Assembly (NCBI RefSeq): GCF_003018255.1
Contig: NZ_CP027440.1
Reading direction: 5' to 3' (one strand)
DNA from: Escherichia coli
GTDB lineage: Bacteria > Pseudomonadota > Gammaproteobacteria > Enterobacterales > Enterobacteriaceae
Length of the DNA: 64,000 bases
Shown: piece by piece, positions 21,701 through 28,100 of the stretch
Position numbering within the stretch: the stretch's first letter is position 1
Layout: every line of letters starts with the position of its first letter
Made by a program: the position numbers and the translations under genes
Notes under the pieces: generated by a model
Seen by the model: only the letters and a program-made list of their open reading frames with translations
Databases searched by the model: none
What the model was told of the DNA's origin: nothing

Positions 21701-24700
21701 ATGGACGTCAGTCGCAGACAATTTTTTAAAATCTGCGCGGGCGGTATGGCTGGAACAACGGTAGCGGCATTGGGCTTTGCCCCGAAGCAAGCACTGGCTC
21801 AGGCGCGAAACTACAAATTATTACGCGCGAAAGAGATCCGTAACACCTGCACATACTGTTCCGTAGGTTGCGGGCTATTGATGTATAGCCTGGGTGATGG
21901 CGCGAAAAACGCCAGAGAAGCGATTTATCACATTGAAGGTGACCCGGATCATCCGGTAAGCCGTGGTGCGCTGTGCCCGAAAGGGGCCGGTTTGCTGGAT
22001 TACGTCAACAGCGAAAACCGTCTGCGCTACCCGGAATATCGTGCGCCAGGTTCTGACAAATGGCAGCGCATTAGCTGGGAAGAAGCATTCTCCCGTATTG
22101 CGAAGCTGATGAAAGCTGACCGTGACGCTAACTTTATTGAAAAGAACGAGCAGGGCGTAACGGTAAACCGTTGGCTTTCTACCGGTATGCTGTGTGCCTC
22201 CGGTGCCAGCAACGAAACCGGGATGCTGACTCAAAAATTTGCCCGCTCCCTCGGGATGCTGGCAGTAGACAACCAGGCGCGCGTCTGACACGGACCAACG
22301 GTAGCAAGTCTTGCTCCAACATTTGGTCGCGGTGCGATGACCAACCACTGGGTGGATATCAAAAACGCTAACGTCGTAATGGTGATGGGCGGTAACGCTG
22401 CTGAAGCGCATCCCGTCGGTTTCCGCTGGGCGATGGAAGCGAAAAACAACAACGATGCAACCTTGATCGTTGTCGATCCCCGTTTTACGCGTACCGCTTC
22501 TGTAGCGGATATTTACGCACCTATTCGTTCCGGTACGGACATTACGTTCCTGTCTGGCGTTTTGCGCTACCTGATCGAAAACAACAAAATCAATGCCGAA
22601 TACGTTAAGCATTACACCAATGCCAGCCTGCTGGTGCGTGATGATTTTGCTTTCGAAGACGGTCTGTTCAGCGGCTACGACGCTGAAAAACGGCAATACG
22701 ATAAATCGTCCTGGAACTATCAGTTCGATGAAAACGGCTATGCGAAACGCGATGAAACACTGACTCATCCGCGCTGTGTGTGGAACCTGCTGAAAGCGCA
22801 CGTTTCCCGCTACACGCCGGACGTTGTTGAAAACATCTGCGGTACGCCAAAAGCCGACTTCCTGAAAGTGTGTGAAGTGCTGGCCTCCACCAGCGCACCG
22901 GATCGCACAACCACCTTCCTGTACGCGCTGGGCTGGACGCAGCACACCGTGGGTGCGCAGAACATCCGTACTATGGCGATGATCCAGTTGCTGCTCGGTA
23001 ACATGGGTATGGCCGGTGGCGGCGTGAACGCATTGCGTGGTCACTCCAACATTCAGGGCCTGACCGACTTAGGTCTGCTCTCAACCAGCCTGCCGGGTTA
23101 TCTGACGCTGCCGTCAGAAAAACAGGTTGATTTGCAGTCGTATCTGGAAGCGAATACGCCGAAAGCGACGCTGGCTGATCAGGTGAACTACTGGAGCAAC
23201 TATCCGAAGTTCTTCGTTAGCCTGATGAAATCTTTCTACGGCGATGCCGCGCAAAAAGAGAACAACTGGGGCTACGACTGGCTGCCGAAGTGGGACCAGA
23301 CCTACGACGTCATCAAGTATTTCAACATGATGGACGAAGGCAAAGTCACCGGTTATTTCTGCCAGGGCTTTAACCCGGTTGCGTCCTTCCCGGACAAAAA
23401 CAAAGTGGTGAGCTGCCTGAGCAAGCTGAAGTACATGGTGGTTATCGATCCGCTGGTGACTGAAACCTCTACCTTCTGGCAGAACCACGGCGAGTCGAAC
23501 GATGTCGATCCGGCGTCCATTCAGACTGAAGTATTCCGTCTGCCTTCGACCTGCTTTGCTGAAGAAGATGGTTCTATTGCTAACTCCGGTCGCTGGTTGC
23601 AGTGGCACTGGAAAGGTCAGGACGCGCCGGGCGAAGCACGTAACGACGGCGAAATTCTGGCGGGTATCTACCATCATCTGCGCGAGCTGTACCAGGCCGA
23701 GGGTGGTAAAGGCGTAGAACCGCTGATGAAGATGAGCTGGAACTACAAGCAGCCGCACGAACCGCAATCTGACGAAGTGGCGAAAGAGAACAACGGCTAT
23801 GCGCTGGAAGATCTCTATGACGCTAATGGCGTGCTGATTGCGAAGAAAGGTCAGTTGCTGAGTAGCTTTGCGCATCTGCGTGATGATGGTACAACCGCAT
23901 CTTCTTGCTGGATCTACACCGGTAGCTGGACAGAGCAGGGCAACCAGATGGCTAACCGCGATAACTCCGACCCGTCCGGTCTGGGGAATACGCTGGGATG
24001 GGCCTGGGCGTGGCCGCTCAACCGTCGCGTGCTGTACAACCGTGCTTCGGCGGATATCAACGGTAAACCGTGGGATCCGAAACGGATGCTGATCCAGTGG
24101 AACGGCAGCAAGTGGACGGGTAACGATATTCCGGACTTCGGCAATGCCGCACCGGGTACGCCAACCGGGCCGTTTATCATGCAGCCGGAAGGGATGGGAC
24201 GCCTGTTTGCCATCAACAAAATGGCGGAAGGTCCGTTCCCGGAACACTACGAGCCAATCGAAACGCCGCTGGGCACTAACCCGCTGCATCCGAACGTGGT
24301 GTCTAACCCGGTTGTTCGTCTGTATGAACAAGACGCGCTGCGGATGGGTAAAAAAGAGCAGTTCCCGTATGTGGGTACGACCTATCGTCTGACCGAGCAC
24401 TTCCACACCTGGACCAAGCACGCATTGCTCAACGCAATTGCTCAGCCGGAACAGTTTGTGGAAATCAGCGAAACGCTGGCGGCGGCGAAAGGCATTGCCA
24501 ATGGCGATCGTGTCACTGTCTCCAGCAAGCGTGGCTTTATCCGCGCGGTGGCTGTGGTAACGCGCCGTCTGAAACCGCTGAATGTAAACGGTCAGCAGGT
24601 TGAAACGGTGGGTATTCCAATCCACTGGGGCTTTGAGGGTGTCGCGCGTAAAGGTTATATCGCTAACACTCTGACGCCGAATGTCGGTGATGCAAACTCG

Positions 24701-25645: not shown

Positions 25646-26291
25646 GTCGAAAATGATTGTGCGCACCAAATTTATTGATCGCGCCTGTCACTGGACCGTG
25701 GTGATTTGCTTCTTCCTGGTGGCGCTGTCCGGGATTTCGTTCTTCTTCCCGACGCTGCAATGGCTGACGCAAACCTTCGGTACGCCGCAGATGGGACGCA
25801 TTTTGCACCCGTTCTTCGGCATTGCGATTTTCGTCGCGCTGATGTTTATGTTTGTGCGTTTTGTACATCACAATATCCCGGATAAGAAGGATATTCCGTG
25901 GCTGTTGAACATTGTCGAAGTATTAAAAGGCAATGAGCACAAAGTGGCGGATGTTGGTAAGTACAACGCCGGGCAGAAGATGATGTTCTGGTCGATCATG
26001 AGCATGATTTTCGTGCTGCTGGTGACCGGGGTGATTATCTGGCGTCCGTACTTTGCGCAGTACTTCCCGATGCAGGTTGTTCGCTACAGCCTGCTGATTC
26101 ACGCGGCTGCGGGTATCATCCTGATCCACGCCATCCTGATCCATATGTATATGGCATTCTGGGTGAAAGGATCGATTAAAGGGATGATCGAAGGGAAGGT
26201 GAGCCGTCGCTGGGCGAAGAAACACCATCCGCGCTGGTATCGTGAAATCGAGAAGGCGGAAGCGAAAAAAGAGAGTGAAGAAGGGATATAA
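25638..26291 (+). CDS. fdnI: formate dehydrogenase-N gamma subunit, cytochrome b556 (217 aa)
   Basis: Start set at [12 protein letters not shown]; overlaps fdnH end. Confidence 0.9.
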
Positions 26292-26312
26292 TCTCTTTTG
26301 AACTTTAAGCTG

Positions 26313-26345
26313 AAAATGGCGCTTTAAGAAGCGCCATTTTTTTAT
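26313..26345. terminator. rho-independent terminator after fdnI (usable from both strands)
   Basis: AATGGCGC-TTTAAGAA-GCGCCATT hairpin followed by a T7 run. Confidence 0.75.
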
Positions 26346-26626
26346 TGCGTAACCAGACGGCGCAGTCGCGACACATCCACCGTTTTTTCAGCCTCTGCCA
26401 GGCTCCAGGCGTTTTGCAGATTCAGCCACATTTGCGGCGAACTGCCGATCACCACGGAAAGTTTAATCGCCATTTCCGGAGTGAGCGCCGCTTTTCCGGT
26501 CAGCAATCGGCTTGCCGTTGAGGGCGCAATTTCCATTGCTCTGGCAAACTCGCGCAGGCTGACATTAAGTTCGTCCAGTGATTCCTGAATAATGTCCCCC
26601 GGGCGGGGATGATTGGCCATTTTCAT
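26342..26626 (-). CDS. yddM: HigA-like HTH (XRE-family) antitoxin (94 aa)
   Basis: Short HTH protein directly downstream of the toxin gene with a 1-nt overlap. Confidence 0.75.
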
Positions 26627-26904
26627 CAGTGATAGTCCTCGTAATCCAGTATGTATGCATCGCCATTGACGAATTCAAATGTGATTCGCCAGTTGCCCGA
26701 GACAGATATCGCCCAAATTCCATCGCGATCGCCGCTTAACGGGTGTAGTCGGTAACCGGGCATATCGATATCAGCAAGACAGCTTGCTGCATCAATCACA
26801 GCGAGTCGGTGGCGTAATCGTTTGACTTGCGTCGGTATAACGCCGGAGGTTTTGCCGAGAAGAAACAAGTCACGCAATCCCTTGTGTCTGAAATTCATTA
26901 TCAT
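26626..26904 (-). CDS. HigB-like RelE/ParE-superfamily toxin (92 aa)
   Basis: Toxin-first gene order; size and sequence consistent with HigB-type killer proteins. Confidence 0.7.
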
Positions 26905-26916
26905 CTCTTCATCCTT

Positions 26917-26933
26917 GTTCCTTCAAAAGGAAC
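26917..26933. promoter_or_regulatory. palindrome GTTCCTT-CAA-AAGGAAC just upstream of the toxin start; candidate autoregulatory operator
   Basis: Perfect 7-bp inverted arms 13-31 nt upstream of the higB-like start codon. Confidence 0.4.
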
Positions 26934-27089
26934 ACTATCACTATTGTTCCGTGCAGCGCAACAAATTTCGCTACGTTTTTGCGAATTGTGAGGGGAAATA
27001 TGGGGGAGGAAAAGAAGAAGAGTGAAATTGCGGAAAGCGTCTCGCAAAACAGGCTGCGACCCGAACATGGCAGTCGCAGCAAAGGCCTC

Positions 27090-28100
27090 TTAGCGGCGGA
27101 AATCAATCACCATACGGCCACGGATTTTGCCTTCTTCCATCTCGGTAAAGATGGTGTTGATGTCCGCTAACGGACGCAGGGCGACTTTCGGCACCACTTT
27201 GCCTTCGGCGGCAAACTGGAAGGCTTCGGTTAGATCCTGGCGCGTGCCGACCAGCGAACCGACCACTTCAATACCATCCAGCACAAGGCGTGGGATGTCC
27301 AGGCTCATAGACTCCGGCGGCAGACCGACAGCCACAACACGACCGCCTGCTCGTACAGCATCAACCGCCGAGTTAAACGCAGCTTTAGCTACCGCTGTCA
27401 CCACCGCGGCGTGAGCGCCACCGGTTTTTTCTTGCACAATTTTGGCGGCGTCTTCAGTGCGTGAGTTAATCGCTAAATCAGCGCCCATTTCGGTTGCCAG
27501 TTTTAACTGCTCATCATTGACATCAATGGCGATCACTTTGGCGTTAAAGACATTCTTCGCGTATTGCAGGGCGAGGTTACCCAGACCGCCAAGACCGTAG
27601 ATAGCAATCCACTGACCGGGACGAATTTTTGACAGTTTCACCGCTTTATAGGTGGTGACCCCCGCACAGGTAATGCTGCTGGCCGCCGCCGAGTCCAGGC
27701 CATCTGGCACTTTTACCGCGTAATCGGCGACCACGATGCACTCTTCCGCCATCCCGCCATCAACGCTGTATCCGGCATTTTTAACTGAACGGCAGAGCGT
27801 TTCGTTACCACTGTTACAGTATTCGCAATGACCGCATCCTTCGTAAAACCACGCCACGCTGGCACGATCGCCTGGTTTTAATGAGGTGACACCTGGGCCA
27901 ACTTCTGCCACCACACCGATGCCTTCATGGCCCAGAATTACGCCGGTTTTGTCACCAAAATCGCCATTCTTAACATGAAGATCGGTATGACATACACCAC
28001 AACACTCCATTTTCAGCAGGGCTTCGCCATGTTTCAGTGAGCGCAGTGTTTTATCCGTAACGTCAACATGATGATCCTTCGTAACAACTGCAGCCTTCAT
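27090..28100 (-). CDS. adhP: alcohol dehydrogenase, propanol-preferring (336 aa)
   Basis: Zn-ADH motifs ([14 protein letters not shown]); start set at MKAAVV. Confidence 0.9.

Follow-up and report, generated by a model that had tools for sequence, protein, structure and literature searches.

The closest described relatives of the locus analyzed here are the HigBA toxin-antitoxin (TA) systems of Rts1 and P. vulgaris (entries 4MCT, 4MCX, 4YPB, 6CHV, and 9CHL). In these systems, the gene for a 92-aa toxin comes first and HigA carries an N-terminal XRE helix-turn-helix (HTH); on an IncT Rts1-like plasmid, a 279-bp higB is followed by higA with a 1-nt overlap. Four residues (H54, D90, Y91, and H92) are critical for the activity of P. 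vulgaris/Rts1 HigB in vivo (PMC5027501), and an H54A substitution inactivates the toxin (PMC12266136). The Rts1 promoter, Phig, has the form TTGCAC-17-TATAGT, with operator O1 over the −35 hexamer and O2 abutting the −10 hexamer. A HigA dimer occupies each of these 21-bp operators, which overlap the −35 and −10 elements, and both are needed for full repression.

Two further systems, GraT-GraA of P. putida and HigBA of P. aeruginosa, belong to the same PF05015 and HigA families but are far more distant in sequence. Their promoters contain palindromic operators bound by antitoxin dimers, with two dimers on one compact 28-bp region that includes TTAAC-GTTAA. E. coli K-12 has its own HigB-HigA pair (YgjN-YgjM), which is likewise toxin-first and shares the family name. 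Its HigA carries the HTH at the C terminus (PMC6987408).

A predicted TA pair at the present locus is already part of the record in several strains. The structure of HigA from strain CFT073 (2ICP/2ICT) was reportedly described by Arbing et al. in 2010. In the literature, 2ICP is given as HigA of E. coli CFT073; the available structure is of the antitoxin alone, and the stoichiometry of the HigB/HigA complex is listed as "unknown" (PMC4803016). The pair was designated TA20 (ParE-2/HigA-2) in the adherent-invasive E. coli (AIEC) strain NRG857c by Bustamante & Vidal (2020), who found the toxin gene to be common to NRG857c and CFT073 and missing from nonpathogenic chromosomes, with HS and K-12 encoding only the antitoxin partner at this locus. 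In a 2024 review with TADB-based tables, the TA20 pair is listed as higB/higA, and the parE/higA pairs of AIEC are said to "remain to be characterized." Deletion of higBA in CFT073 (Norton & Mulvey), possibly at another locus, caused no defect in mouse urinary tract infection. Our literature search found no published experiment on this particular HigB.

Results

Gene layout

In the window, i.e., the whole 64-kb stretch of E. coli DNA that was analyzed, the interval between fdnI (plus strand, ending at position 26291) and adhP (minus strand, 27090 to 28100) contains two minus-strand ORFs (Table 1). An earlier note on this DNA had described a 92-aa and a 94-aa ORF overlapping by 1 nt between the fdn operon and adhP; these coordinates were right, although the note omitted that the genes are on the minus strand. 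At the junction, CAC TGA TG AAA, a single A serves both the toxin stop codon and the antitoxin ATG (TGATG). Reading of the ORFs bore out the claim that both frames are intact, and the toxin-first order on which that note had relied is exactly the order of Rts1-type higBA. The ORFs are taken as real genes because their Pfam, NCBIfam, and PDB matches reflect homology rather than chance.

Table 1. Features of the higBA locus, in window positions
Feature	Position	Strand	Remarks
Hairpin between convergent fdnI and higA	26313..26340		Probably a bidirectional terminator
higA (= yddM)	26342..26626	−	94 aa, ATG start; HigA-family XRE HTH antitoxin, putative autorepressor
higB	26626..26904	−	92 aa, ATG start; HigB-family toxin, predicted ribosome-dependent mRNA endonuclease
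AGGA Shine-Dalgarno	26912..26915	−	7 nt before the higB ATG; read from the sequence
Proximal operator-like inverted repeat, TGTTCC-N7-GGAACA	26916..26934		Candidate site for predicted HigA binding; contains the palindrome of the earlier note
Putative sigma-70 promoter	26934..26961	−	TTGCGC (26961-26956), 16-nt spacer, GATAGT (26939-26934); proposed from the layout of Rts1 Phig
Distal operator-like inverted repeat, TGTTGC-N7-GGAACA (gene orientation)	26945..26963		Candidate; overlaps the putative −35
Hairpin past the adhP stop	27053..27080	−	GCTGCGAC...GTCGCAGC, then CTGTTTT; upstream boundary of the higBA unit

Purine-rich GGA or GAGG sequences occupy the position matching the Shine-Dalgarno element in the Citrobacter and Phytobacter loci described below. 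The hairpin between fdnI and higA has a 12-bp stem and a folding energy of −16.2 kcal/mol (z = −3.6; no shuffled sequence folded equally well) and is followed by a T-run on the plus strand. A consensus-based terminator scanner called no terminator, this hairpin included. The hairpin on the adhP side is an inverted repeat with a folding z-score of −0.9, which is not significant alone, and it is kept in both toxin-plus and toxin-less alleles. Elsewhere in the 64-kb window, the sole Rfam family match was the selenocysteine insertion element of fdnG (RF01989, 84.3 bits) at 22283-22341 on the plus strand.

The toxin and antitoxin families

The first ORF matches Pfam family PF05015 (HigB-like_toxin) with an E value of 1.4e-17 and a score of 64.4 bits against a cutoff of 27, over profile positions 2-91 of 91. 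No other Pfam family matched it at E ≤ 0.01, and neither did a ParE model. The closest PDB relatives are P. vulgaris/Rts1 HigB entries (E values of about 1e-31; phmmer E = 8e-32 to 4MCT_B), and alignment to this solved toxin is gap free, with 52/92 identities (57%). H54, D90, Y91, and H92 are all present at identical positions, as are N71 and R73. Residue-for-residue alignment with Rts1 HigB also fixes the higB start at 26904. Because of the 57% identity to a solved HigB, the protein is predicted to adopt the microbial RNase fold. These results support the assignment of the 92-aa ORF to the HigB family of toxins in the RelE/ParE superfamily, as had been proposed; in the profile search that the note had named as a possible refutation, the protein fell inside the HigB family and not outside it. 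A single substitution (S41C) separates the toxin encoded in the window from the Nissle allele.

The second protein matches the equivalog model TIGR02607 (antidote_HigA) with 93.7 bits against a cutoff of 47.7 and PF01381 (HTH_3) with 39.1 bits against a cutoff of 23. The HTH lies in the N-terminal part, at residues 14-65. The protein is identical over all 94 aa to the "antitoxin HigA" of PDB entries 2ICP and 2ICT, so the description of the second ORF as an XRE-type HTH antitoxin holds. Identity to P. vulgaris HigA is 40%, and the window antitoxin is 10 residues shorter at the C terminus than its Rts1/P. vulgaris counterpart.

Matches to the other described systems were weaker. GraA/GraT (6F8S) was a weaker PDB match to both window proteins, and P. 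aeruginosa HigA (6JPI) matched the antitoxin only. K-12 YgjN and YgjM were absent among the PDB matches of the window proteins at E ≤ 0.01, and the HTH of the window antitoxin is N-terminal, in contrast to the C-terminal HTH of K-12 HigA. The K-12 HigBA pair thus belongs to a different subfamily.

Candidate operator and putative promoter

A perfect palindrome, GTTCCTT-CAA-AAGGAAC (26917-26933), had been put forward in the earlier note as a plausible autoregulatory operator. It extends to a perfect repeat of 8+3+8 nt, TGTTCCTT-CAA-AAGGAACA, at 26916-26934, which ends 11 nt upstream of the higB ATG, abuts the AGGA Shine-Dalgarno element, and sits between that element and the putative −10 hexamer. 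An imperfect copy is located 29 bp away, at the distal site, and is 70% identical to the proximal one when the two are compared as a direct repeat.

Eight upstream regions were aligned, from two toxin-plus E. coli, two toxin-less E. coli, three Citrobacter, and one Phytobacter locus. The invariant blocks (TGTTGCG, G-AACA, TGTTCC, and GGAAC) correspond to the four half-sites of the two inverted repeats. Across the eight regions, the distal site reads TGTTGC-N7-G(G/C)AACA and the proximal site TGTTCC-N7-GGAAC(A/G); the site starts are 28-29 bp apart, and the N7 spacers and the flanks vary freely. Both sites of the joint consensus, TGTTSC-N7-GSAACR, were kept in 11/11 chromosomal loci examined, and in each fetched chromosomal locus the consensus was found only upstream of higB or yddM. 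In the 64-kb window, it occurs at these two sites and nowhere else against 0.02 strand-matches expected, a rarity that is partly circular because the consensus was derived post hoc from the same sequences; for this reason, the footprint pattern and not the site count constitutes the real evidence. A search of TGTTCC-N7-GGAACA with two mismatches gave a nonsignificant result (4 sites found versus 2.6 expected), and only the exact and degenerate consensus sequences are specific.

The perfect 7-3-7 palindrome is specific to the window allele, and Nissle and EC958 carry GAGGGAAC at this position. Phylogenetic footprinting therefore makes the proposed operator a well-supported candidate in a modified form, since the conserved core is 6-N7-6 and there are two sites, not one. 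We regard the two inverted repeats as the likely operator, to which HigA is predicted to bind.

The hexamers TTGCGC and GATAGT, with their 16-nt spacer, are proposed to form the higBA promoter by analogy with Rts1. They are weak (3/6 and 4/6 matches), and the consensus scanner did not call them. The sole promoter that it did call, TTGAAG-18-GATAAT (26926 to 26897), has a −10 hexamer overlapping the higB start codons and was rejected as the main promoter, because transcription would begin inside the higB ORF; it is unlikely to drive the operon.

The arrangement in the window resembles that of the Rts1-type promoter, in which a pair of inverted repeats with a spacing of about 30 bp likewise surrounds the −35 and −10 elements. 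The half-sites differ (TATTACAC-N3-GTGTAATA in Rts1 versus TGTTCC-N7-GGAACA in the window), and the window pair occupies a syntenic chromosomal position in Escherichia and Citrobacter, whereas the Rts1 pair is plasmid-borne. The two separate sites are unlike the single compact operator region of GraTA and P. aeruginosa HigBA.

Annotation and loss of the toxin gene in E. coli

The RefSeq chromosome of strain 2017.09.02CC is 100% identical to the query. The earlier note had called for a comparison with the reference annotation, and this record annotates both genes; the PGAP names are "type II toxin-antitoxin system RelE/ParE family toxin" (WP_000605676.1) and "yddM: HigA family addiction module antitoxin" (WP_000781370.1). 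The CFT073 HigA with its partner toxin, TA20 of NRG857c, and the higBA pair in TADB represent the same locus with the same antitoxin sequence, of which the window carries another strain's allele. The pair is therefore an already known predicted system: it has a RefSeq annotation, a TADB entry, and a place in a comparative paper, and the antitoxin has been crystallized.

The suggestion that the toxin would be unannotated wherever a reference lists only the HTH gene did not hold. In K-12 MG1655, O157, and others, the yddM-adhP interval is only 145 bp, and in the alignment the toxin ORF is missing; it has been deleted, not overlooked. Because the ORF is gone, references with the HTH gene alone are correct. 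K-12 yddM (b1477) is thus an orphan that shares with the window the protein, the position between fdnI and adhP, the promoter, and the operator core. The YddM proteins of the window and K-12 are the same, and their genes have 13 nucleotide differences, all synonymous. In toxin-less alleles, the promoter and both operator sites are retained and lie almost immediately before the yddM start, with AGACAC-T(A/G)ATG-AAA at the junction (AGACAC-TAATG in K-12). One reading of this sequence is that codon 7 of higB (CAC) has been fused to its last codon (CAC) and the TGATG overlap, although the exact breakpoint is ambiguous.

The extent of toxin loss was assessed in 5,426 complete E. coli genomes, with toxin presence defined by at least 80% coverage. 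Any match to the locus query was found in 5,412 of these genomes, and yddM was annotated in every inspected entry that spans it. The toxin gene was kept in 1,328/5,426, leaving about 75% without the toxin ORF. In EC958 (ST131), a 1-bp deletion breaks the toxin frame at codon 33 (L005:601-878; window equivalent, 26626-26904), and the PGAP annotation marks it as a frameshifted pseudogene. An exact match to the 54-nt frameshift allele of this strain was present in 545/5,426 genomes, about 41% of toxin carriers. In strain JA0265 (L006:601-870), a 9-bp in-frame deletion removes QVK from HigB, which is then 89 aa long. The sequences thus indicate that the toxin has been lost in E. coli in at least three separate ways, by a shared deletion of the whole ORF, an ST131-type frameshift, and an in-frame deletion. 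With the ORF lost from about 75% of genomes and frameshifted in 545, the toxin is clearly dispensable.

The surroundings of the two allele classes also differ. The stretch from the adhP-side hairpin to the distal operator (window 26964-27052 versus L002:1883-1925) is about 88 nt long in toxin-plus and about 40 nt in toxin-less alleles and cannot be aligned, while the flanking genes differ by a few percent; the allele classes therefore seem to be much older than their surroundings or to have recombined. The fdnI-yddM gap is 50 bp with a single hairpin in the window (26292-26341) and 229 bp, an intermediate length, in Nissle and JA0265. In K-12 (L002:1140-1520), this gap contains a tandem duplication whose two units, of about 178 bp, both have a terminator-like hairpin and REP/BIME-like palindromic units. 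An IS200/IS605 family tnpA is annotated beside yddM at the yddM-adhP locus of the toxin-less E. coli strain LH85-a (NZ_CP100486.1).

Relatives of the pair

Homologs are 78-87% identical in Citrobacter farmeri, C. amalonaticus, C. rodentium, and C. werkmanii and 97% identical in E. marmotae. In the three Citrobacter contigs fetched, higB-higA lies next to fdnI/fdnH, with the 1-nt overlap kept. An inorganic pyrophosphatase-family gene stands between higA and fdnI in these contigs (L009, L010, and L011), and the neighbor on the side of higB that faces adhP in E. coli is maeA in C. rodentium or a gene for a two-domain ABC ATPase in C. farmeri and the C. werkmanii type. HigB of the C. werkmanii type (L011:2501-2767) has lost four residues in frame and is 88 aa long; both this deletion and that of JA0265 fall in the helical N-terminal part and retain the catalytic C terminus. 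The Phytobacter pair is found at another genomic position and shares the toxin-first arrangement.

Comparison of the window with Citrobacter gave dN/dS values of 0.05-0.07 for the toxin and 0.04-0.06 for the antitoxin, which are rough because dS is near saturation, and which point to purifying selection on both genes. The module is therefore an old chromosomal pair that has been maintained vertically, and the loss of the toxin within E. coli is derived.

Enterobacterial plasmids commonly carry HigB homologs, which occur in 99 E. coli plasmid records among others and are at most 57% identical to the window toxin. An identical toxin is present in NZ_CP141089.1, a record of 4.94 Mb that is filed as a plasmid in PLSDB and is evidently a chromosome; it would inflate counts of "plasmid-borne" toxin copies.

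Discussion

The locus is very probably a chromosomal type II TA operon of the Rts1/P. vulgaris HigBA type, with toxicity, neutralization, and DNA binding as predicted properties. By homology, HigB would enter the ribosomal A site, cleave mRNA that is being translated, and arrest growth. Translation of higA may be coupled to that of higB through the TGATG overlap, and the dimeric XRE HTH protein YddM would bind and neutralize the toxin. By analogy with Rts1, HigA alone or with HigB would repress the operon at the two inverted repeats, one over the −35 hexamer and the other between the −10 hexamer and the ribosome-binding site.

The nature of the toxin has been named differently by different sources. 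Bustamante & Vidal (2020) chose the label ParE-2 because of its CDD superfamily, ParE_toxin, and the generic PGAP name would also admit a ParE-type gyrase poison paired with a HigA antitoxin in a hybrid system. The probability of such a hybrid is close to negligible: PF05015 is the sole Pfam match, the top PDB relatives are all HigB endoribonucleases, the catalytic tetrad is intact, TADB relabels the pair higB/higA, and the partner is a HigA HTH protein and not of the ParD type. Phage defense is known for some type II TA modules, and an abortive-infection role might be considered here as well. Such a role is very improbable for this pair, since no feature of the locus specifically suggests it. 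PADLOC gave no match for the toxin and only a weak generic HTH match for the antitoxin, and the two genes form a small syntenic islet surrounded by core metabolic genes, outside any defense island or prophage.

The pattern of loss across the species raises the question of whether the toxin still matters. Repeated loss, by the deletion seen in K-12 and O157, the frameshift shared by EC958 and 544 other genomes, and the in-frame deletions in JA0265 and C. werkmanii, together with conservation of YddM with or without its partner, would fit a decaying remnant in which, despite the intact ORF, the toxin is attenuated or silent and YddM alone accounts for the function of the locus. Any single intact-looking allele could indeed be attenuated. 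Nevertheless, the window toxin is full length, has the four critical residues, and is one residue away from the Nissle allele, and its dN/dS relative to Citrobacter, about 0.06, indicates that a functional protein has been selected for over a long time; we consider decay of the window locus improbable. A somewhat less unlikely proposal, although still a minority possibility, is that YddM is the main player, either in anti-addiction against plasmid HigB toxins or as a domesticated regulator, and that HigB is an accessory that is being purged. The near-universal match to the locus, the identity of YddM in K-12 and the window, and the retention of the promoter and two-site operator in the toxin-less allele are in keeping with it. 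So are the abundance of HigB homologs on plasmids and the choice of K-12 YddM as one of the candidate transcription factors for a ChIP-exo study. Anti-addiction is disfavored by the limited identity (at most 57%) of the plasmid homologs, as type II antitoxins are usually toxin specific. A toxin-independent role of YddM would not preclude a functional TA pair in the window strain, which, if YddM has such a role, would represent the ancestral, still-armed state.

Taking the locus as a HigBA-type TA operon, the significance of the finding beyond correct annotation is small. What the present analysis adds is a two-site operator consensus with an Rts1-like O1/O2 layout, evidence that the module is ancestral to Escherichia and Citrobacter at its present chromosomal position, and counts of toxin loss, all of which may be useful for testing the system or for studying orphan antitoxins.
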